Shown here: positions 20,558 to 41,695 of the stretch, in pieces
Position numbering within the stretch: the stretch's first letter is position 1
How the letters are laid out: every line of letters starts with the position of its first letter
Notes under the pieces: generated by a model
What the model saw: the letters and a program-made list of their open reading frames with translations, nothing else
Told to the model about the DNA's origin: nothing
Databases searched by the model: none
Source: an uncultured Candidatus Saccharibacteria bacterium
GTDB taxonomy: Bacteria; Patescibacteriota; Minisyncoccia; Phycocordibacterales; DATGWK01
NCBI GenBank assembly: GCA_964390475.1
Contig: CAYMIB010000002.1
Span: 1 to 42,995 of the forward strand
Direction: 5' to 3'
DNA: 42,995 bases
Translations under genes and position numbers: made by a program

Positions 20558-21202
20558 ATGGTCTATATTTTTCTGGATGAATCTGGCGATTTGGGCTTTA
20601 ATTTTAAAAAGAAGAAAACTTCGAGGTATTTTATTATTACTGCCCTATTAACAAAAAATAAGACTCAGCTGGAGAAAATAGTTAAGAAAATATTTAGGGA
20701 CCTTGCTCCGAATGAAATTAAAACCCGCGGTGGAACATTGCACGCTCACAAAGAAAGTCCGAAAACAAGGCAAAAATTACTCGGATTATTTCACAATCAA
20801 ACGGGTACAAATATTGCTGTTATTTATATAAAGAAACAGATAGCTCACACAAACTTATTCAAGAAAAAACATCATTTATATTCTCAAATTATAAATGAAT
20901 TGCTCAGTAGAATATGTGAGAAAGAACTAATACCAAAAAATGAGATACTTCACATTTACGCTTCAAGAAGAGAGACCAACCGATCTCTGAATACTCACTT
21001 TTCCTCCTATCTTAAAAAGGAGTTAGAAACCCATTATAAAATAAGTGCTGAGATTTGTGTTCTTTCACCGTCGGCTGAAAAGGGTCTGCAGGTTGCTGAT
21101 ATGATCTCCTGGTCAATTTTCAGAAAATATGAACACGGTGACATAACTTACTACGAGACCATAGCAAAGGAAATTATTGAGGAAAATCAATTACACCCGT
21201 AG
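20558..21202 (+). CDS. DUF3800-family protein
   Basis: 214 aa. The N-terminal VYIFLDESGDLGF motif is typical of DUF3800. It is the only + strand gene in this stretch. Confidence 0.6.
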   Translation: MVYIFLDESGDLGFNFKKKKTSRYFIITALLTKNKTQLEKIVKKIFRDLAPNEIKTRGGTLHAHKESPKTRQKLLGLFHNQTGTNIAVIYIKKQIAHTNLFKKKHHLYSQIINELLSRICEKELIPKNEILHIYASRRETNRSLNTHFSSYLKKELETHYKISAEICVLSPSAEKGLQVADMISWSIFRKYEHGDITYYETIAKEIIEENQLHP

Positions 21203-23376: not shown

Positions 23377-23426
23377 TACGGTAGTTATAGCATAATCACG
23401 ATAAAAATTTTAGAGAAATTAAAAAA

Positions 23427-23453
23427 ACGCGGAGTGTCCGAAGACCCCCGCGT
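23427..23453 (-). terminator. Strong intrinsic terminator ending the helicase/hairpin-tail transcript
   Basis: Minus strand: ACGCGGgggtc-TTCG-gacactCCGCGT followed by TTTTTTT. The loop is a cUUCGg tetraloop. This is the first terminator-like structure downstream of the helicase stop. Confidence 0.75.
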
Positions 23454-23456
23454 CTG

Positions 23457-24101
23457 TAGAAGAGAAAAGAACAACTAACTAGACAGAACCCTACGAAACT
23501 GAACACCAGAAACGCCCACAAAGCCTTTCAGCAATGTGAGCCTGTACTCGACCCGAGATCACTGAACAGTACTGCACGATACCACGCATCACATGGCGAT
23601 AATCGAATAGTGCGAGACGTTTTTCAACGCCCTGCACTCTGAACTACAACGAACAAAAGAGGACTTGGCGACACAGTACAATGCGCCAGTAAATCGAACT
23701 CAAATGTACACGAAAGGCCTTTCGGCTTCTCGTGTCGGCACAGAAGATCACAGGAGGCCACCGAACTACAGGTCACGACGCTACAGAGAACCTAACTGGA
23801 CTCAATCAGAAACGCACCAAGGACCTTCCGGCCTCCGGTGCCTGTACCAATCAATACTGTACCTAACAGTACACGACACCAGGTCACTAGAATTACAAGT
23901 GCACAGAAGCCCTTTCGGATTTCTGTGCCGATAGAGAACCGGACCTTAGGGTGCTCTAGAATACAGAACTCCACGGGACAGCACTTAACCTAAAATTGCA
24001 CAGAGTGATCGAAAGATTACTCTGTGCCTAAAGTACACCATACTGTACTCAGCGACACAGAGCGGCAGAGTACAAAAGTGAACCATGTGTCCGGCTACAA
24101 A
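23457..24101 (-). ncRNA. Hairpin-unit tail downstream of the helicase ORF (six hairpin units, no intervening terminator)
   Basis: Family hairpins at 23514-23541, 23610-23637, 23708-23735, 23814-23841, 23901-23928 and 23998-24027. Five are 28 nt (12 bp + GAAA/GGAA on the minus strand) and one is 30 nt. Spacing is 87-106 nt. No credible ORF, and no promoter or terminator between the helicase stop (24102) and 23453. Confidence 0.55.
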
Positions 24102-25940
24102 TTAGAGAAGCAGCTTCTCTGCATCCTTCACCGCGGCGTCAAACGTCAGGTCGCCCATGTAGACTTGCTGAAGATGTTTGGGCAGTGAAGCGAAGACGTG
24201 GCGACGGAACTGTTGGGAAATGAAGAACGTGACGCCAACATCGGAGCGGCTCCGAATGTTGCGTCCACGAACCTGAAGCGCTTGTTGCATTGCCCGCTGA
24301 CCCCAGATCGCCCAGCGCTGACCTCCCCACCGATCCTCCTCGAACTGAGTTCCAGGATCACGAGGGTTTGGATAACTTGGACGAAGAAAAAAGATGACGG
24401 GCGCCATCTGCCTTGGAAGATCAATTCCCTCGGCGTAGTTGGCGGCGGTACCAACCAAAGTACTTCCTTCACCCTGCTTGAAGATGTTGGCAGCTTCCTT
24501 GGCTGTTACACCGTTGCCGTAGCTGATTACCTCGAGACCCTCTTCTGCGGCCATCCGCAAAAAACGATCTCGTTCATCATTTGAAACGACAACCACCAAC
24601 GAACGTAGCCCCTTGTCGGCAAACTGCTTGCATGAACGTGCAATCTGACGCAACGTTTTTGGCAGATCCCGATCGCTCCGCGTATTTCTTGCGAGGTTTG
24701 GCGTGTCGGTTGGCATGTAGACCCTTGTATTGCTGGCTGGGAAATTCGAATCGAGAGACAGGAACGGATCCTTGATCCCCGTTTCGAACCCAAAGATCTC
24801 AGGGTTGCCAATCGTTGCCGACAGCGACACCCGGTTCTTAGGCAAAATCATTTTGATGAGCGGCACTACGTAGTAGCACCGCACCACCAACTTGGTTTGG
24901 AACCGACCTTCTGAGACACGTTCCCTTCTCTGGAATGCGCAGGTGTAGTTGAGTGCCTTCCTTTCTTCGGTTGGCACTGAATACTCAAGCGTTGAGATGT
25001 ACCGCCTGAGATCTCTCACGAGAGTCTCGAGCTTTTTCAATGTGACACGATCCTCACGTGGATCGATCTTGCCCTTTTTCACAGCATCTCTGATAGCAAC
25101 AGCAAGCTCTTTCACATCGATTTCCCGGAGGATTTCGATGAGTTGAAGAACTTGTGCTGGCTTGAGAAGCGCTGCTTCACCAACTGCCATGCGACCAGCG
25201 ATTGAAATCATCTTTCGCCTGAATGTCCTCAGGACTCTTGCGACCTTTGGGGCAACTGACGTCAGAATTTCTTCTGATCGCTTGAGGTGTAGATCAGTAA
25301 TGTCGTAGGAAAGAGAGTTGCGGACGACGTTTGCCAACTGATGCGCCTCGTCGATCACCACACCTTGAGTATTGAACTCCTTTGAAAACAAGTGGGTGAA
25401 GAGAAAGAAGGACATCGTTGAGAGCACAAGCCGTGCTTTCTTTGCCTTATACTTTTGCTGAAGATACGGGCAAGCCGTTGCTCCCTTCACATGAGTCTCG
25501 CCCGTTTCTTGGTCTACCCGATGCGGGCAGTCCTGAAGAAATGAACACGGAATCTGATCGGCACGAGGATTTTCTGGATCATCGACAAGTGTTTCAAGCG
25601 TTTCCGATGAAACTCTCGGCTCGTTCCGGTAATACAAGCACGGATGCTCATTTCGTCCCAAAGCAACTGGCAGATCCGGAAACTCTATCCGAATCTGATC
25701 CAAAATCGTCTTGGTCGGCGTAATGATGAACACCGTACCGTCTGTCTGCGTTCGCATGTAGTTTGCGATCGCAAATTCCACAGCCGTTTTTCCTGTCCCT
25801 GTCGGCGCCTCGATGATTGCAGAGCCATGCTCCGCGTAAAACTCGAGCATGTCGTTTTGCACAACTCGTGGCTCACGATACACCGCCGTGCTTGGAAAGT
25901 GCGTTTTAAGCACTGGCAAGCTGATGGTCTTTTGGCCCAT
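24102..25940 (-). CDS. DinG/XPD (Rad3)-family SF2 helicase with four-Cys Fe-S cluster insertion
   Basis: 612 aa. Strong SD (gaAAGGAGGtccataATG). Walker A APTGTGKT. Cys cluster HPCLYY..IPCSFLQDCPH..ACPYLQ. DEAH box VVIDEAHQL. Motif VI QALQVRGRNIRSRSDVGVTFF. Confidence 0.8.
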   Translation of the reverse strand: MGQKTISLPVLKTHFPSTAVYREPRVVQNDMLEFYAEHGSAIIEAPTGTGKTAVEFAIANYMRTQTDGTVFIITPTKTILDQIRIEFPDLPVALGRNEHPCLYYRNEPRVSSETLETLVDDPENPRADQIPCSFLQDCPHRVDQETGETHVKGATACPYLQQKYKAKKARLVLSTMSFFLFTHLFSKEFNTQGVVIDEAHQLANVVRNSLSYDITDLHLKRSEEILTSVAPKVARVLRTFRRKMISIAGRMAVGEAALLKPAQVLQLIEILREIDVKELAVAIRDAVKKGKIDPREDRVTLKKLETLVRDLRRYISTLEYSVPTEERKALNYTCAFQRRERVSEGRFQTKLVVRCYYVVPLIKMILPKNRVSLSATIGNPEIFGFETGIKDPFLSLDSNFPASNTRVYMPTDTPNLARNTRSDRDLPKTLRQIARSCKQFADKGLRSLVVVVSNDERDRFLRMAAEEGLEVISYGNGVTAKEAANIFKQGEGSTLVGTAANYAEGIDLPRQMAPVIFFLRPSYPNPRDPGTQFEEDRWGGQRWAIWGQRAMQQALQVRGRNIRSRSDVGVTFFISQQFRRHVFASLPKHLQQVYMGDLTFDAAVKDAEKLLL

Positions 25941-26007
25941 TATGGACCTCCTTTCGATGTTACGATGTTACTTTAACGCTCAAACATTAAACAAAAAAAC
26001 AGAACTG

Positions 26008-26026
26008 AAACGCACACGATGCGTTT
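26008..26026 (-). promoter_or_regulatory. Hairpin in the helicase 5' leader (possible attenuator or bidirectional terminator)
   Basis: AAACGCA-n5-TGCGTTT. On the + strand it is followed directly by TTTTTTT. On the minus strand it is preceded by an A-run and followed by cagttctgttttttt. Confidence 0.35.
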
Positions 26027-26060
26027 TTTTGTCAAAAAGCTTAAATTACCTCCGGGCGCG

Positions 26061-26089
26061 AGAATATCACATTTATTTTAATTTGTAAA
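26061..26089 (-). promoter_or_regulatory. Extended -10 sigma70 promoter for the helicase transcript
   Basis: Minus strand: TTTACAaattaaaataaatgTGaTATTCT with a 17-nt spacer. Same design as the array promoters. Confidence 0.6.
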
Positions 26090-26114
26090 GCATTGGTCGC
26101 ACGTCTCGCTAGCA

Positions 26115-26383
26115 TAAAAAATGCCAGCAAATCTTTCGAAATGCTGGCCTGCACTATAGGAAACTGCACAATACGTAACATTACCTCACTCTACTTCGAT
26201 CAAATTGTCGGTTGCAGATTTCTCAGCAACCGACCAGTAGACCAGAAAAACTTACGGGACATTACCATGGTGTACGATACCCCACAGTATGAAGTGTCGA
26301 TCGAGTTTTTCAACCCGACCGACCCGCGCAGAACAATACCCTGCCGGACCGTAGACTTGTTAACTGAACCACGGGGCTTGTTC
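26115..26383 (-). ncRNA. Hairpin-RNA unit U7 (2 hairpins)
   Basis: Runs from the promoter in module A to the terminator GCCAGCAtttc-GAAA-gatttGCTGGC + AUUUUUU (26123-26148). Family hairpins at 26207-26234 and 26295-26322. Confidence 0.55.
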
Positions 26384-26389
26384 GATATT

Positions 26390-26446
26390 AGAATAACACG
26401 CCAGATTTGGCTTGTAAAGTAAAAGCCGAGGGTTGGGTACCTCGGC
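26390..26446 (-). promoter_or_regulatory. Fused terminator-promoter module A
   Basis: Minus strand: GCCGAGG-tacccaac-CCTCGGC cttttacTTTACA -17 nt- TGtTATTCT. The hairpin is at 26425-26446, the -35 at 26413-26418 and the -10 at 26390-26395. Confidence 0.6.
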
Positions 26447-26809
26447 GAGTAGAACACGGAGCTGAAGGCAAGGGCACGTTAGAAAGGTTGACCCTACGAC
26501 ACTGAACCGGAAGTGTTGGCTTTGTGTTCCCACAAAACTAACCTATAGAGAACTGAACATAACTCGAGTGTAGGATACCTAGCTGGACTCTAATGAAATT
26601 GTCAGTTCGACCTTTCGACCAAACTGACCTATAGGAAAGGAAACGCGAGATCACAACGCTGGACAGTACTCCACCTGACGCTACTCAACATTACTCAACT
26701 AAAATTGTCATCCGGATTTTTCAACCCAGATGACCCATAGAATGCAGTACACCACCGCACGGCACCTCACACCACTTGAGGCTACTCAACATTACTGAAC
26801 CCAAGTTCC
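26417..26809 (-). ncRNA. Hairpin-RNA unit U6 (3 hairpins)
   Basis: Lies between the module B promoter and the module A terminator. Hairpins at 26515-26542, 26601-26628 and 26707-26734. Confidence 0.55.
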
Positions 26810-26815
26810 AAAAGG

Positions 26816-26872
26816 ATAATAACACGGAATATAATTTTTGTAAAATAAAAGCCGAGGGTTGATTACCTCGGC
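26816..26872 (-). promoter_or_regulatory. Fused terminator-promoter module B
   Basis: Minus strand: GCCGAGG-taatcaac-CCTCGGC ttttatTTTACA -17 nt- TGtTATTAT. Hairpin at 26851-26872, -35 at 26839-26844, -10 at 26816-26821. Confidence 0.65.
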
Positions 26873-27663
26873 GTACACTGTGGTCGACTTCGCATGACGA
26901 TACGAAACTAGACACGAACAAACTTGAAGTGTTGGCTGACCTTTTCAAGTCCGCCAACGAGCAGTGCGACAAACATTACTATAGTGCACAACACAATACA
27001 GTGCGCTATTTACCAGGTGGTCAAAAGTGTCAGTCGAGCCTTTCGGTCCAACTGACCCAAACATCACGTTAGGAGAGAGTGCCTTACTGCACAATACCTA
27101 GCCTGACAAGACCAGACAAATCGTCAGCGAGATCTTTGAACCTCGCTGACCCATACAGCAGTTTACTATTCCTTACTAGACTGAGCTATGCTCTAGAACA
27201 GTGAACCGCGTTTATCTATTACAATATCTCAACCGATTTTTTCAAACCGGTCGAGCCTTAGAATACCGTGATGTAGAAGACAGGAGACTACGTCGCCATA
27301 CTCGACCTGAGTCTACCCGACGGTGAAAATTTGTCAGTCCAGTTTTCACCAAACTGACCGAAAGTGGAGAACACTTAGGTATACGGCACAATACCGTACG
27401 ATACCCTGGCGAACTAAAACGTCAGTTCAACCTTCCGGCTAGACTGACCTACAGATAACTGAACCTGACTCGAACGCAGGTTACCTAGCTGGACTCTAAT
27501 GAAATTGTCAGTTCGACCTTTCGACCAAACTGACCGATAGAAAACTCAACTTGGCGGAACAAAACTGGACGCAACTAGAATTGTCATCCGGATTTTTCAA
27601 CCCAGATGACCAGTACTGCTCAGTAGCCAACTGCGCGGGACTCAACCTTGCAATACTCTATCC
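26843..27663 (-). ncRNA. Hairpin-RNA unit U5 (8 hairpins, longest unit)
   Basis: Hairpins at 26931-26958, 27029-27056, 27123-27150, 27228-27255, 27333-27358, 27421-27448, 27507-27534 and 27583-27610. Bounded by the module C promoter and the module B terminator. Confidence 0.55.
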
Positions 27664-27669
27664 GAATGC

Positions 27670-27724
27670 ATAATAACATGAATTATTTTTTTGTAAAATA
27701 AAAACCGAGGGTTGGTTACCTCGG
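27670..27724 (-). promoter_or_regulatory. Fused terminator-promoter module C
   Basis: Minus strand: CCGAGG-taaccaac-CCTCGG tttttatTTTACA -16 nt- TGtTATTAT. Hairpin at 27705-27724, -35 at 27692-27697, -10 at 27670-27675. Confidence 0.6.
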
Positions 27725-28099
27725 CGAAAAGCTAAGTGCCAATCACTTCTTTCGAAGAGAATGGCCCATACACAGCGGTACCGCACGCCAGGCCACCTGA
27801 CCTTACAGTGGTACACGAAGCTGAAATTGCTAGTCGAACTTTTCAGTTCGACTAGCCGGTACAAGACTCATGAGTACACGACCGAAGTCAACAGAACACT
27901 ACCGGAAATGTCAGCGTCACCTCTCGGCGAAACTGACCTACAGAGGAGTCAACACTGGGTTGCTGCACAAAACTCTACCTAACACTGCTACACGAAAGGA
28001 CAAAATGTCGAACTTGTGTTTCCACAAGATCGACCCTCAGAACACAAAGCCAGACTGGACAGAGCAACACACCACTAAACCATGTTATAAAAGCTGTCT
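27697..28099 (-). ncRNA. Hairpin-RNA unit U4 (4 hairpins)
   Basis: Hairpins at 27738-27765, 27829-27856 (perfect 12 bp + GAAA), 27910-27937 (GAGA loop) and 28007-28034. Confidence 0.55.
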
Positions 28100-28105
28100 A
28101 GCAAG

Positions 28106-28159
28106 ACAATAACACAAATTATTTTTTTGTAAAGAAAAACCGGCCACTTGGACCGGTTT
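28106..28159 (-). promoter_or_regulatory. Fused terminator-promoter module D (terminates the 86-aa ORF, promotes U4)
   Basis: Minus strand: AAACCGGtccaagtggCCGGTTT ttcTTTACA -16 nt- TGtTATTGT. The hairpin sequence differs from the other modules, but the promoter half is conserved. Confidence 0.6.
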
Positions 28160-28177
28160 GTGCTGTGACTCAGAGAT

Positions 28178-28438
28178 TCACTCGAACAAATAGAAGAGCT
28201 CTCCCTTCACGAGATCCTTCTCCTCAACCTCAATTTTCCCCTCAATCTCCTTAAGGATTTCTTTCCAATTCTCGGTGTTCTCACCAGTCCGGTATGTGAA
28301 TCTCTCAGCAATAGACTCACACCGTCCACCACCCTCTTGCCTTTGGCAGAGAATTCTGTCGGCCTCTTCCCGATTTTCAGCCAGAATCACGTAGCTGGTC
28401 AAGCCTGGTCCTGTGTAAATGTACGCCTTCAATTCCAT
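28178..28438 (-). CDS. Orphan 86-aa protein occupying one slot of the RNA-unit array
   Basis: The internal ATG at 28438 has the SD aAGGGGAaagtcATG. The track start at 28513 abuts the upstream terminator with no room for a promoter or RBS. Product MELKAYIYTGPGLTSYVILAENREEADRILCQ... has no motif I recognise. Confidence 0.6.
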   Translation of the reverse strand: MELKAYIYTGPGLTSYVILAENREEADRILCQRQEGGGRCESIAERFTYRTGENTENWKEILKEIEGKIEVEEKDLVKGELFYLFE

Positions 28439-28475
28439 GACTTTCCCCTTCGTTTGTGTGTTTGGATCTTTTCTC

Positions 28476-28504
28476 AGAGTATCATAAATATAAATACTTG
28501 TCAA
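28476..28504 (-). promoter_or_regulatory. Extended -10 promoter of the 86-aa ORF
   Basis: Minus strand: TTGACAagtatttatatttaTGaTACTCT with a 17-nt spacer. Confidence 0.55.
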
Positions 28505-28518
28505 ATGGACCATTCATA

Positions 28519-28800
28519 ATAAAAAAGTCGAGGATTGGTTACCTCGACGCGCACCAGGGTAAAGACTAGGCTACGAAACAAAACGGAACACTACTTTGCG
28601 AAATTGAAATTATTAGCTGAGCCTTTCGACCCAGCTAATCTACAGAGGAACAGACTGAGGTTAACGGTGCGATACGTTACCGTACGCCGCCTTAGACCAA
28701 ATTGTCAATCTCGCCTTTCAGCCAGACTGACCCGGAGAGTACTACAGTCAACAGCGGTAGACGGTAGATCACTGCACGTGAGTGAAGAACATCACGATCC
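28519..28800 (-). ncRNA. Hairpin-RNA unit U3 (2 hairpins)
   Basis: Hairpins at 28612-28639 (AUUAG.../...CUAAU base) and 28704-28731. Confidence 0.55.
28521..28548 (-). terminator. Terminator E (ends unit U3)
   Basis: Minus strand: GTCGAGG-taaccaat-CCTCGAC followed by TTTTTTATTAT. Same hairpin family as modules A-C, F and G, with a compensatory stem change. Confidence 0.65.
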
Positions 28801-28806
28801 GCACTC

Positions 28807-28862
28807 ACTATAACACGAATATCGTTTTTGTAAAATAAAAGCCAAGGGTTGGGTACCTCGGC
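28807..28862 (-). promoter_or_regulatory. Fused terminator-promoter module F
   Basis: Minus strand: GCCGAGG-tacccaac-CCTTGGC ttttatTTTACA -16 nt- TGtTATAGT. The stem has a G.U pair on the minus strand, which would be an A.C mismatch on the + strand. Confidence 0.6.
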
Positions 28863-29043
28863 GAGTAGGAAGGTGGACACCAGAAGACGATGCGAAACAC
28901 AACAGTAAAACACTGAACTTTATTTTTTTGAATTGTCAGCCCAGTTTTTCAACCGGACTGACCCGCAGACAACTACACAGCAGTAGAGTACACGTCACAT
29001 CACGCAACTCGACCGTGCAAAACGTAACCTCAATTACTTTTCT
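28833..29043 (-). ncRNA. Hairpin-RNA unit U2 (1 hairpin)
   Basis: Single hairpin at 28935-28962, identical in sequence to the inverted copy at 30833-30860. Confidence 0.55.
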
Positions 29044-29049
29044 TCAAAG

Positions 29050-29105
29050 ACAATAACATGGATTTATATTTTGTAAAATAAAAGCCAAGGATTGGTTACC
29101 TTGGC
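29050..29105 (-). promoter_or_regulatory. Fused terminator-promoter module G
   Basis: Minus strand: GCCAAGG-taaccaat-CCTTGGC ttttatTTTACA -16 nt- TGtTATTGT. The stem carries a compensatory G-C to A-U change relative to modules A-C. Confidence 0.6.
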
Positions 29106-29744
29106 GTAGAGTGGAGTACACAGAACGACACTGAAGAGTGCAAGAGGATACCGCACACCACGTCACCTCAGACCACGCTAAAGCGTCAGCTCGATTTTTC
29201 AATCAAGCTGACCCGTACCTGGGAATACAACAGCTTGCTGGACGAGAGACTAGCGTACACTACTGGACCAAAGCGTCAGCTTAGTTTTTCAACCAGGCTG
29301 ACCAGCACGGAAGTCCGGCCCACGAGACATGGCTAGACACCACTTCAAATTGTCGGCATCACCTTTCGGTGTAACCGACCGGCACAGAACTCTGCCGTAG
29401 CTTACAGGGCTATACGTAACAGAGCCACAGACAAAATTAAATTGTCGACCGTGTGTTTCCACAAGATCGACCCTTAGCACAGCACAGTTAACGGCAGAAC
29501 ACGGCAGTTCACGGCACTTGAGTGTAGATCAAAGTGTTAGCCCAGCATTTCTACCGGGTTAACCAGCAGTGTACATCACCGCACATTACCAAAGACGACG
29601 TCACGCTACGAAACCTCACTTCAAAATTGTTGGCACCGCGTCTCCGCGATGCCAACCCATAGAGCACCGGACGCGACCTGGCGATACCTAACAATACCTT
29701 GGGTGACAATACCCTGGGTGACTGTACCCAACTTAGATCGATCC
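29076..29744 (-). ncRNA. Hairpin-RNA unit U1 (6 hairpins)
   Basis: Hairpins at 29185-29212, 29275-29302, 29352-29379, 29444-29471, 29536-29563 and 29629-29656. The 5' end is inferred from the putative promoter at 29751-29779. Confidence 0.5.
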
Positions 29745-29750
29745 TCACAA

Positions 29751-29793
29751 AATCTACTATCATGTTGACACGAAGTCAACCGTATGTTAAGTT
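29751..29793. promoter_or_regulatory. Back-to-back divergent promoters sharing a palindromic -35 region
   Basis: + strand: TTGACAcgaagtcaaccgtaTGtTAAGTT (29765-29793, 17-nt spacer) for the 242-aa gene. Minus strand: TTGACT -17 nt- TAGATT (29779 down to 29751) for U1. gTTGAC-acgaa-GTCAAc is a perfect inverted repeat. Confidence 0.5.
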
Positions 29794-29880
29794 TCGCCCG
29801 GACTCAAGAGTGAGGGCGTTGTGCCGCTCGCCTGAGATTTCTTTCAAGGGCTTGAAAAAGCCACAGTACGGAGAAAGACC

Positions 29881-30609
29881 ATGAAGCGTTTGCTGATCAC
29901 GTGTGTTGGTGCGTATCCCATCATGATGGACCCGATGACTGATGAAGTGCTCGACAGCCTCGCAACAGGCGTCCGTGTTCAGATCCAGAAGGATCTGTCT
30001 CATGCCGATGTCGCTCGCAAGAAGATCTACCGCGAGAATGGCGACAAGGATGGTCGGATCGGCCTGCCGACCGAAATGCTTTTCGCGGCATTGGTTGCGG
30101 CAGGTCGCAAGGTTTCCTACCGAGGCAAAACCAATATCTCGACCGCTGAAACCTCCATGTTGCCCGGCCTGCTCACGATCAACGAGGACTTCCTGCCGTT
30201 CCCAATTCCGGACGGCGCGACCGAGCCGAAGTGGACGGTCGACAAGCGGCGTGGACGTCTGGAGAACGGTACGGCTGTGTGCTTGCGTCGTCCCAAGTTC
30301 GCCGACTGGGGTTTCGAGGTCACCATTGACTTCGATGACAAGGAGATCAGCGAGGGCAAGGTTCGAGAACTCTTCAACATCGCCGGCCGGTTCTGCGGAC
30401 TCGGATCTTTCCGACCGAGCTGCAAGGGTCCGTTTGGTCGGTTCGCGGTCCAGAAACTCGCCGACATCACGCCCACCGAATGGGCGAATGAGCCGGCTGA
30501 GGAAATCGAAGAGGGCGACGACACTGACCAGACTGGCGGCGAAGAGCGCCGGACTGGCAACAGTCATGGCAGGACCGGGACCAGGAACGGCGCGCTCGCG
30601 GGAGCTTGA
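29881..30609 (+). CDS. GC-rich 242-aa hypothetical protein with RAMP-like glycine-rich motif (possible RNA-binding/processing protein)
   Basis: SD acGGAGaaagaccATG. Of three overlapping long frames this is the only one with an RBS and a balanced composition. GLGSFRPSCKGPFGRF, near the end of the folded part, resembles the RAMP/Cas6-type G-rich loop (weak). Acidic disordered tail. The functional call is low confidence. Confidence 0.75.
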   Translation: MKRLLITCVGAYPIMMDPMTDEVLDSLATGVRVQIQKDLSHADVARKKIYRENGDKDGRIGLPTEMLFAALVAAGRKVSYRGKTNISTAETSMLPGLLTINEDFLPFPIPDGATEPKWTVDKRRGRLENGTAVCLRRPKFADWGFEVTIDFDDKEISEGKVRELFNIAGRFCGLGSFRPSCKGPFGRFAVQKLADITPTEWANEPAEEIEEGDDTDQTGGEERRTGNSHGRTGTRNGALAGA

Positions 30610-30698
30610 ACCGGCAACTGACGTTCTTCAGAAGGCAATGTTGTTTTGTAGTGCATAGTAAACAGCAGTTGCGTCATGCGCGTTTCTGTTCACTATCG

Positions 30699-30756
30699 CG
30701 GGCGTCCTGAAAAGGGCGCCCGTTTTTCTTTACTAAATCGAAATTTGTGTTATCTT
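30699..30756 (+). promoter_or_regulatory. Fused terminator-promoter module on the + strand
   Basis: CGGGCGTCCT-GAAA-AGGGCGCCCG (10 bp + GAAA) followed by TTTTTcTTTACT -16 nt- TGtTATCTT. Same layout as the minus-strand modules. Confidence 0.6.
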
Positions 30757-30762
30757 GGCGTT

Positions 30763-30964
30763 TGGACTCAAGTAGACTAGTGTTCCGTTGAGTACAGCAG
30801 GCTTGAGTATGGATCAGTTCTCTTTTCCGCGGGTCAGTCCGGTTGAAAAACTGGGCTGACGATTAGACCTCAGTTTTGTGTTCCACAGTTCGCTCGTGTG
30901 ACGTGATGTCCATTTAAGTTCCGTTTTCTGTCCGCCAGGGTATCCAATCCCTGGCTTTTATTTT
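30763..30964 (+). ncRNA. Inverted (plus-strand) hairpin-RNA unit, paralogue of U2
   Basis: Hairpin at 30833-30860 (GTCAGTCCGGTT-GAAA-AACTGGGCTGAC). Terminator GCCAGGG-tatccaat-CCCTGGC + TTTTATTTT at 30934-30964, abutting the tgt stop codon. Confidence 0.55.
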
Positions 30965-41326: not shown

Positions 41327-41695
41327 TTAGTACGGCCGATGACTTGATCTGCTTGGCGACCACCAGTCGAGCTGGGTGCCACTGCCGTGGTCACGCTCCC
41401 GATATGTAGAGATGCTGTTCCGATCGAAGTGCGTTGGGCCAAAGCGTCCTCCGATGCTGGCATGGAAGTTGTGGCTTTGGTTGACGATGACGACGTCCGA
41501 GCGCGGACCGAGGTCATTCAGACCCAACAACGTGCCAATGTTCGGACCGGTCGTGCCGTAGTTGGCGCCGCCGTATCCGCCGTTGCAGTAGTCGTCGGTG
41601 TCGGTCCAAACAAAACCAGCACAACCAGGCAGCGTGCAGAGCACAACCAATGCCAACATGGCAAAGACAATGAACCTGGAAACTGCAGTCTTCAT
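41327..41695 (-). CDS. Small lipoprotein, hypothetical (GC-rich orphan cassette 4)
   Basis: 122 aa. Signal peptide with lipobox (VVLCTLPGC), SD AGGAG 6 nt from the ATG, and a Gly/Asn-rich mature part. Confidence 0.7.
   Translation of the reverse strand: MKTAVSRFIVFAMLALVVLCTLPGCAGFVWTDTDDYCNGGYGGANYGTTGPNIGTLLGLNDLGPRSDVVIVNQSHNFHASIGGRFGPTHFDRNSISTYRERDHGSGTQLDWWSPSRSSHRPY

Follow-up and report, generated by a model that had tools for sequence, protein, structure and literature searches.

From our analysis of the 42,995-nucleotide stretch of contig CAYMIB010000002.1 (the window), the region at about 23426-30964 is very probably a VIPR (Viral Interference Programmable Repeat) locus, borne on the chromosome of a probable member of the Saccharibacteria and comprising a vipr gene, 34 guide RNA (vrRNA) units, and a DinG/XPD-type helicase gene that lies between two parts of the guide array. 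An initial annotation of the same window had singled out the 242-amino acid (aa) product of the vipr gene for a glycine-rich loop resembling that of RAMP proteins, and had offered it as a candidate for recognising or processing the 12-bp GNRA hairpins encoded nearby, with the reservation that the resemblance could be coincidental. VIPR systems are described in two 2026 preprints (10.64898/2026.04.26.720920, 10.64898/2026.04.26.720927), which are the source of all VIPR background given here. In these systems, the effector is Vipr, a minimal RAMP, and the vrRNAs are ~100 nt long, consisting of 9-16 pentanucleotide repeats (YNNGG, with conserved GGY and variable NN in turn) and, after these, a structured tail that does not vary. 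In the SUSP1 system, one protomer occupies each repeat in a helical filament, the structured 3' tail caps the RNA, the thumb and the G-loop sequester the GGY, and the NN pairs with double-stranded DNA such that every third target base is skipped; the contacts are H17 and D177 for G1, R138 and W178 for G2, and R179 for Y3. Seven VIPR types are distinguished, with variant repeats (NNNGG, YNNNG, and NNNNG); the accessory genes of types III-V are nucleases or helicases, and about a quarter of VIPR loci are chromosomal. The published experiments concern type II (phage SUSP1 and a Pseudomonas prophage), types III and V being represented by small-RNA sequencing only.

The 242-aa protein is a Vipr, that is, a single-RRM Cas7-like RAMP. 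A phmmer search against PDB sequences returned one significant match only, 36pp_D ('SUSP1 Vipr protein', E=1.6e-6), which spans the G-loop, and alignment of a 29-homologue profile with SUSP1 Vipr by hhalign gave a probability of 97.2% (E=3.8e-11, residues 1-191 versus 1-188) at ~29% identity. The profile searches by which the initial annotation had proposed to check the resemblance gave a divided answer: the Pfam, PADLOC, and NCBIfam libraries held no useful match (and no Cas hidden Markov model, HMM, in PADLOC or NCBIfam), while PHROGs yielded a full-length match to phrog_4652 (function unknown, E=4e-17) beside the PDB Vipr entry. The structural check, also proposed there, did recover an RRM/RAMP fold. 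The AlphaFold2 model, built on the alignment, has a mean predicted local distance difference test (pLDDT) score of 88.2 and a predicted template modelling (pTM) score of 0.78, and its top 50 Foldseek matches in the PDB are all CRISPR RAMP backbone subunits (type VII Cas7, Csm3, and Cmr; E ~1e-5, probability 1.0, template modelling scores 0.4-0.58), with neither Cas6 nor Cas5 among these 50 and no Vipr entry among the Foldseek matches. When viral structure models (BFVD) were searched, the best matches were one 'RAMP superfamily protein' and others that are uncharacterised. With 6,692 clusters at E<=1e-3 in a profile search of 1.84 billion cluster representatives, the family is large.

The glycine-rich motif ELFNIAGRFCGLGSFRPSCKGPFGRFAV corresponds to Vipr residues 164-191. 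The RRM core, thumb, and G-loop together make up residues 1-195, and the acidic, Gly-rich C-terminal tail (residues 196-242, ~45 residues) is predicted to be disordered. In the alignment of 29 homologues, seven residues of the G-loop (G169, G173, R178, G183, F185, G186, and F188) and five of the thumb (D121, R123, G125, R137, and P138) are invariant. The motif is therefore the conserved core, the part of the family that varies least, and not a chance string, so the reservation about coincidence can be dropped. For the G2 and Y3 contacts of SUSP1 Vipr, the residues at the equivalent positions here are invariant or nearly so (R138=R137, W178=F177, and R179=R178). A bare G-loop motif outside a CRISPR context sufficed to flag a true RAMP.

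It was also correctly noted at the outset that the gene is real, that it is the GC-richest open reading frame (ORF) of the window (59.7% versus 44.4% for the window; 71.6% at third codon positions), that it diverges from the minus-strand array, and that it is followed by a hairpin unit of its own on the plus strand. The GC excess recurs in the relatives compared (L002 10001-10747, L005 8001-8702, L007, L008, and L010), where vipr has 57-64% GC against 42-52% in its surroundings. As the excess is found in these relatives too, the syntenic locus among them, one recent transfer is an unlikely cause of the high GC content of vipr.

The second component of the locus is the guide array. We found 34 vrRNA units, 33 on the minus strand and one on the plus strand (3' of vipr), each with 8-12 in-phase [G/C][U/C]NNN repeats, amounting to 359 pentamers. 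Every unit has the same layout, 5'-[(G/C)(U/C)NNN] x 8-12, a G, a GNRA-capped stem of 12 bp, and an A/U-rich 3' end. When 30 units were aligned at the start of the hairpin, columns -6/-5, -11/-10, and so on to -56/-55 were G/C followed by T/C in 25-30 of them, and the three columns between the conserved dinucleotides were unconstrained. Autocorrelation at lags 5, 10, and 15 is elevated solely in 23400-24000 and 26000-29800, and a strict detector of GY tracts found 11 in the window versus none in shuffled sequence. The repeat corresponds to the published YNNNG variant; the canonical first G is not conserved here. This 5-nt periodicity, like the helicase gene embedded in the array, had been missed in the initial annotation.

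The hairpins are equally well supported, with pairing in 95.4% of cells (29-42% in slid controls) and compensatory changes at all 12 pairs (113 cells), a level reached by none of 500 shuffles. Frequent G-U pairs, which would be mismatches on the opposite strand, fix the transcribed strand. The base of the hairpin is conserved (GUCAG/CUGAC) and is followed by AAUUU. Searches of the region for a CRISPR array, a ribozyme, or an Rfam family yielded nothing. Two classes of hairpin handle occur, GUCAG.../...CUGAC-AAUUU upstream of the helicase (26121-29717) and a GCAC(A/C) class downstream of it (23426-24083), where about half of the units carry GCAC(A/C).../...(U/G)GUGC; this split recurs in a related genome (L002 5863-6264) despite a single vipr gene. 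Some units also bear traces of rearrangement. In three pairs of hairpins (26628/27534, 26734/27610, and 28962/30833), 28 of 28 bases are identical while the guide tracts are unrelated, and the next 12 nt after the hairpin are fully identical for 26628/27534 alone; a segmental duplication (26527-26664 versus 27433-27570) takes in one hairpin together with the initial third of the guide that follows. These observations suggest that guides diversify through duplication and recombination at the hairpins.

The third component is a helicase of the superfamily 2 DinG/XPD family, with the Pfam domains DEAD_2, Helicase_C_2, and ResIII, a Walker A motif (APTGTGKT), a DEAH box, and four Cys (at about residues 101-157) at the position of the iron-sulfur (FeS) domain. 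It matched the Rad3, DinG, and YoaA models of NCBIfam, and its best matches among PDB sequences are XPD/Rad3, with no CasDinG chain among the matches. The PADLOC model typeIV_DinG PDLC01439 matches over the full length (E=5.6e-41). Other Csf4/CasDinG models match only the N-terminal Walker A region, and we therefore call the protein a DinG/XPD-family helicase, for which kinship with CasDinG is only possible. Of 62 loci that encode Vipr relatives in GTDB species genomes, 24 have a homologue of the helicase no more than a few kb from vipr; with the separately retrieved L002, there are 26 locus entries, which represent 25 distinct loci as L002 and L006 are the same contig. These homologues share 37-76% identity and come mostly from metagenome-assembled genomes (MAGs) of Patescibacteria, together with two MAGs labelled Gammaproteobacteria. 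Among the helicase-bearing loci, the flanking genes uvrB and tgt recur solely in the L002/L006 contig. As the helicase adjoins vipr in 25 distinct loci while the flanks uvrB and tgt are not shared, the DinG/XPD-type helicase is the accessory gene of this Vipr clade.

The closest relatives (53-55% identity) are Candidatus Saccharibacteria MAGs. The L002/L006 contig shares the synteny of uvrB, helicase, array, vipr, and tgt. The layout seen here (vipr, array, helicase, array) is present both in this contig and in L005, which has at least 27 guides. No guide is common to the window and the related genomes, and L002 and L005 share one or two. Guide content thus differs wholly between the window and its relatives under a conserved architecture, a turnover that fits a role in defence or genetic conflict. 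Farther afield, distant Vipr relatives (L031-L066, from Magnetococcales, Planctomycetes, Victivallales, and others) are accompanied by N-G-C-N-N tracts, which were detected on both strands because the GC dinucleotide is palindromic; ~40-60% of their repeats begin with G. In these distant loci, vipr has no neighbouring homologue of this helicase that the search could find.

By homology with the SUSP1 system, one Vipr protomer would bind each pentamer, with the thumb and the G-loop sequestering the conserved G/C-pyrimidine dinucleotide and the variable nucleotides displayed for base-pairing. Since 8-12 in-phase repeats precede every hairpin and SUSP1 protomers bind pentamers, the tracts are likely the expected Vipr binding sites. 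The helical filament so formed would read double-stranded DNA by a code that is gapped and non-contiguous, and would generate an R-loop. The hairpin would serve as an invariant 3' cap or handle, probably protecting the 3' end, and would not be the primary site of protein recognition. The DinG/XPD helicase may be recruited to the R-loop, where it would unwind or translocate 5'-3' and thereby strengthen or spread the interference, as in the case of CasDinG in type IV-A CRISPR. For the maturation of multi-guide transcripts, our preferred guess is cleavage by host RNases at the A/U-rich linker after each hairpin. Direct observation covers the homology and fold of the protein, the periodicity of the repeats, the covariation of the hairpins, the layout of promoters and terminators, and the linkage of helicase and vipr; we infer the formation of the ribonucleoprotein (RNP), its DNA target, the decoding rule, the role of the helicase, and the way in which multi-guide transcripts are cut. 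A further proposal is that the helicase-coupled clade, which is mostly from Patescibacteria, has three variable bases per pentamer, and lacks the residues that read the first G, uses another decoding rule (e.g., three paired bases per protomer). With its RAMP filament and DinG-type helicase, it would form an evolutionary bridge between VIPR and type IV CRISPR-Cas, and it would serve here as a non-adaptive immune or conflict system, chromosomal and with as many as 34 guides, in an epibiotic bacterium of reduced genome. We put this proposal forward as a speculation that is rather unlikely to hold.

Several observations weigh against the VIPR interpretation. The repeat here, [G/C][U/C]NNN, has three variable bases, as opposed to GGYNN in SUSP1, and H17 and D177, with which SUSP1 Vipr reads the first G, are replaced by D17 and S176. 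Given these replacements, the decoding rule may differ from the published rule of skipping one nucleotide. The loss of the G1 contacts agrees with the loss of the first G from the repeat; Ser in place of Asp at 176, considered as a sufficient cause of that loss, was rejected, for relatives bearing Asp also have repeats in which the first base is variable. The placement of the locus between uvrB and tgt recurs in one other genome (the L002/L006 contig), and a conserved chromosomal position would also fit a host-regulatory role. Searches for targets were likewise unsupportive. When all 34 guides were compared, by seven spacing rules, with the window and with 63 retrieved loci, matches stayed at the level of shuffled controls, the period-5 matches being the guides themselves. 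Five IMG/VR scans and one metagenome scan, in which six of the 34 guides were applied under one spacing rule as 'abN' patterns of 8-10 repeats, gave chance-level matches. Finally, the variable triplets carry no codon signature, and no model beats uniform composition.

The scans of public collections are weak as negative evidence. A 16-base target scan was at chance level among the matches listed; scan matches comprise the selected core only, agreement in the flanking repeats being no better than chance, and other guides do not converge on the same matched contigs above the control level. One guide, m27056, matches four IMG/VR contigs (L187 2464-2498, L188, L189, and L190) at 19-20 of 24 'ab' positions, at a site covering the ribosome binding site (RBS) and start codon of a conserved 128-aa ORF; the match is in frame, and its skipped base falls on the wobble position. 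As a target, this site was set aside, since its flanking repeats match at chance level and the match is most likely a coincidence. We also observed that stop-like triplets (such as TGA and TAG) are over-represented among the variable bases in the forward frame, and that the forward triplet frame is open in only 13 of 34 guides, versus 22.8 +/- 2.5 expected from position-shuffled guides. The codon tests and this enrichment argue against a simple rule whereby contiguous triplets would represent sense codons, and bear on nothing beyond that.

In an alternative close to the initial proposal, Vipr would be a Cas6/Cas5-like endoribonuclease that cuts the multi-unit transcripts at the 12-bp GNRA hairpins, alone or beside a filament role. 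Up to eight units lie between one promoter and one terminator, so that some processing activity is needed, and the absence of a ribozyme, the conservation of the hairpin base with the AAUUU that follows, and the sharing of the G-loop among RAMPs all lend this idea some appeal. However, the top 50 structural matches are Cas7-type throughout, Vipr has one RRM instead of two, and the SUSP1 homologue binds pentamers, its 3' tail merely capping the RNA, with no RNase activity reported in the VIPR preprints; moreover, two hairpin classes coexist with one vipr gene and the stems vary freely, which argues against sequence-specific recognition. We consider such a nuclease improbable, and the analysis does not support cleavage of hairpin transcripts by Vipr. 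What survives of the initial proposal is the RAMP identity of the protein and its functional tie to the RNA units; Cas6-like recognition or processing of the hairpin is not supported.

The VIPR interpretation with a DNA target has also to be weighed against an RNP that targets RNA or regulates host genes post-transcriptionally, and not the double-stranded DNA of mobile elements. The closest solved folds, Csm3 and Cas7, are from RNA-targeting type III and type VII complexes, the locus lies on a chromosome and keeps its synteny in a related genome, and no phage or plasmid target was found in the scans made. On the other hand, the characterised homologue binds double-stranded DNA and silences transcription, the conserved partner is a DNA helicase of the DinG/XPD family, guide matches to the window's own genes do not exceed shuffled controls, and the complete turnover of guides between related genomes is unlike a conserved regulatory circuit, which together leave an RNA-directed role quite improbable. 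That the locus is instead a degenerate or atypical remnant of type IV or type III CRISPR-Cas is suggested by a RAMP adjoining a helicase that matches the PADLOC type IV DinG model at E=5.6e-41, but the region has no CRISPR repeat-spacer array, the RAMP matches no Cas HMM in PADLOC or NCBIfam and is directly homologous in sequence to Vipr, and the RNA units show pentamer periodicity and not a repeat-spacer structure; a remnant of this kind is highly improbable.

The guides are transcribed from at least ten units bounded by promoter-like and terminator-like sites on the same strand, which divide the array into units of 1, 2, 3, 6, and 8 guides (Table 1). The plus-strand vrRNA is preceded by a promoter-like sequence, TTTACT-17-TATCTT, which was read by eye. 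For the unit at 26121..26374, no clear terminator was found ahead of the promoter-like site of the helicase (26089-26061). In array B, the part of the array downstream of the helicase, several units have the second handle in the form GCAC(A/C).../...TGTGC or ...GGTGC, and the last hairpin doubles as a terminator (T-run at ~23425). The terminator hairpin GCCGAGGTAACCAACCCTCGGC recurs about seven times, including on the plus strand (30934-30964), and the T-run of this repeated terminator overlaps the TTTACA that forms the -35 box of the promoter after it, such that its copies mark the boundaries of the guide operons.

Table 1. Coordinates of the vipr gene, guide RNA units, helicase gene, and associated signals in the window.
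Feature	Position	Strand	Details
vipr	29881..30609	+	ATG at 29881, stop ends 30609; 242-aa RAMP
vipr intrinsic terminator	30698..30723	+	11-bp stem, GAAA loop, T-run
Plus-strand vrRNA	30772..30860	+	12 repeats 30772-30831; 12-bp GAAA hairpin 30833-30860; terminator 30934-30955
Unit 1, six vrRNAs	29185..29717	-	promoter-like 29779-29751; terminator 29105-29084
Unit 1 hairpins	29656-29629, 29563-29536, 29471-29444, 29379-29352, 29302-29275, 29212-29185	-	
Unit 2, one vrRNA	28935..29023	-	12 repeats; hairpin 28962-28935; promoter 29077-29050; terminator 28862-28841
Unit 3, two vrRNAs	28612..28787	-	hairpins 28731-28704, 28639-28612; promoter 28834-28807; terminator 28548-28527
Orphan small ORF	28178..28513	-	mechanical ORF of 111 aa; likely 86 aa from MELKAY after RBS
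Three-vrRNA unit	27829..28080	-	hairpins 28034-28007, 27937-27910, 27856-27829; promoter 28133-28106; terminator 27725-27704
Eight-vrRNA unit	26931..27656	-	promoter 27697-27670; terminator 26872-26851
Hairpin starts of eight-vrRNA unit	27610, 27534, 27448, 27358, 27255, 27150, 27056, 26958	-	
Three-vrRNA unit	26515..26795	-	hairpin starts 26734, 26628, 26542; promoter 26844-26816; terminator 26446-26425
Three-vrRNA unit	26121..26374	-	hairpin starts 26323, 26234, 26148; promoter 26418-26390
Accessory helicase, candidate vap	24102..25940	-	612 aa, SF2 DinG/XPD family; between two array parts
Array B, seven vrRNAs	23426..24083	-	directly 3' of helicase stop codon
Array B hairpin starts	24027, 23928, 23841, 23735, 23638, 23541, 23453	-	
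Terminator-promoter cassette, example	27670..27725	-	GCCGAGGTAACCAACCCTCGG(C/T)-TTTTATTTTACA-16/17 nt-TATTAT
Further cassette copies	29050-29105, 28807-28862, 28106-28159 (variant), 26816-26872, 26390-26446	-	repeat families
Terminator-only cassette copy	28527-28548	-	

Within the array, the small ORF at 28178-28513 has its own promoter-like site, an RBS, and a terminator (28159-28137). It has no match in Pfam, NCBIfam, or PADLOC and found just itself among 5.8 billion proteins; being an orphan that is absent from related loci, it was rejected as an accessory gene. A sub-threshold Rfam match to suhB/mmgR (30664-30737 on the plus strand, 25 bits, E=0.068) overlaps the vipr terminator and is probably due to chance. 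Elsewhere in the window, a DUF3800 gene (20558-21202, plus strand) lies between a histidine kinase gene and uvrB, on the strand opposite to its neighbours, and has no homologue in the syntenic relative L002. The second GC-richest ORF of the window (57.2%) is at 41327-41695 on the minus strand.

Of the known systems, type II VIPR (Escherichia phage SUSP1 and a Pseudomonas fulva prophage) offers the most direct comparison. The two have in common a homologous Vipr with RRM, thumb, and G-loop in a ~20 kDa core, guides of ~80-100 nt built of pentanucleotides with a conserved G-pyrimidine, variable bases, and an invariant structured 3' tail, the placement of guides on both sides of vipr, and the lack of a CRISPR array and of adaptation genes. 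They differ in the tail (a 12-bp GNRA hairpin here, a pseudoknot in SUSP1), the number of guides (34 versus four in SUSP1), the accessory gene (a DinG/XPD helicase versus a predicted DNA-binding vap), and the setting (chromosomal in a probable Saccharibacteria genome versus phage-borne in SUSP1). With VIPR types III-V, the locus shares a helicase accessory, a chromosomal setting, and the YNNNG variant repeat, whereas Patescibacteria, a GNRA-hairpin tail, and arrays of this size are unmentioned in the preprint text.

Type IV-A CRISPR-Cas resembles the locus at the level of its parts. DinG-family helicases such as CasDinG have 5'-3' activity, and CasDinG acts in type IV-A interference (PMC10450177, PMC11519345). 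Both systems combine a Cas7-like RAMP backbone with a DinG-family helicase, assembly on a guide RNA and 5'-3' activity being predicted here, and nuclease-independent interference or silencing may be a further likeness. Unlike type IV-A, the locus has no CRISPR array, Csf1, Csf3, or Cas6, its Vipr matches no Csf/Cas HMM, and its helicase keeps four Cys at the FeS position, where the published CasDinG has a vestigial FeS domain. The Cas7/Csm3 backbones provide the best structural matches and share RNA binding by thumb and G-loop, with one subunit per RNA segment of fixed length and periodic base flipping, both of which are predicted for Vipr. However, the RNA period is 5 nt instead of 6, a single small protein would act without partner subunits, the guide is a repeat tract and not a spacer, and no similarity to Cas7 HMMs is found at the sequence level. 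Cas6 likewise belongs to the RAMP superfamily and has a G-rich loop, and CRISPR-repeat hairpins are often kept as a 3' handle; but Cas6 has two RRMs and cleaves the base of the hairpin, whereas the Vipr model has a single RRM and a thumb, and the hairpins here are too variable for a specific handle of the Cas6 kind.

The locus, with 34 guides in cassettes, a hairpin tail, a variant repeat, and a conserved helicase, is a rich natural example of its kind with features beyond those treated in the published VIPR text. It is useful for asking how a variant repeat is decoded, how guides mature without ribozymes or Cas6, and what a helicase contributes to a DNA-binding filament, and it hints at sizeable RNA-guided systems of the VIPR kind in Saccharibacteria and other Patescibacteria. 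In essence, VIPR systems, variant repeats, and helicase-bearing types have already been described, and this locus joins them as a member of a helicase-associated clade, with a variant repeat, a hairpin tail, and an unusually large array.

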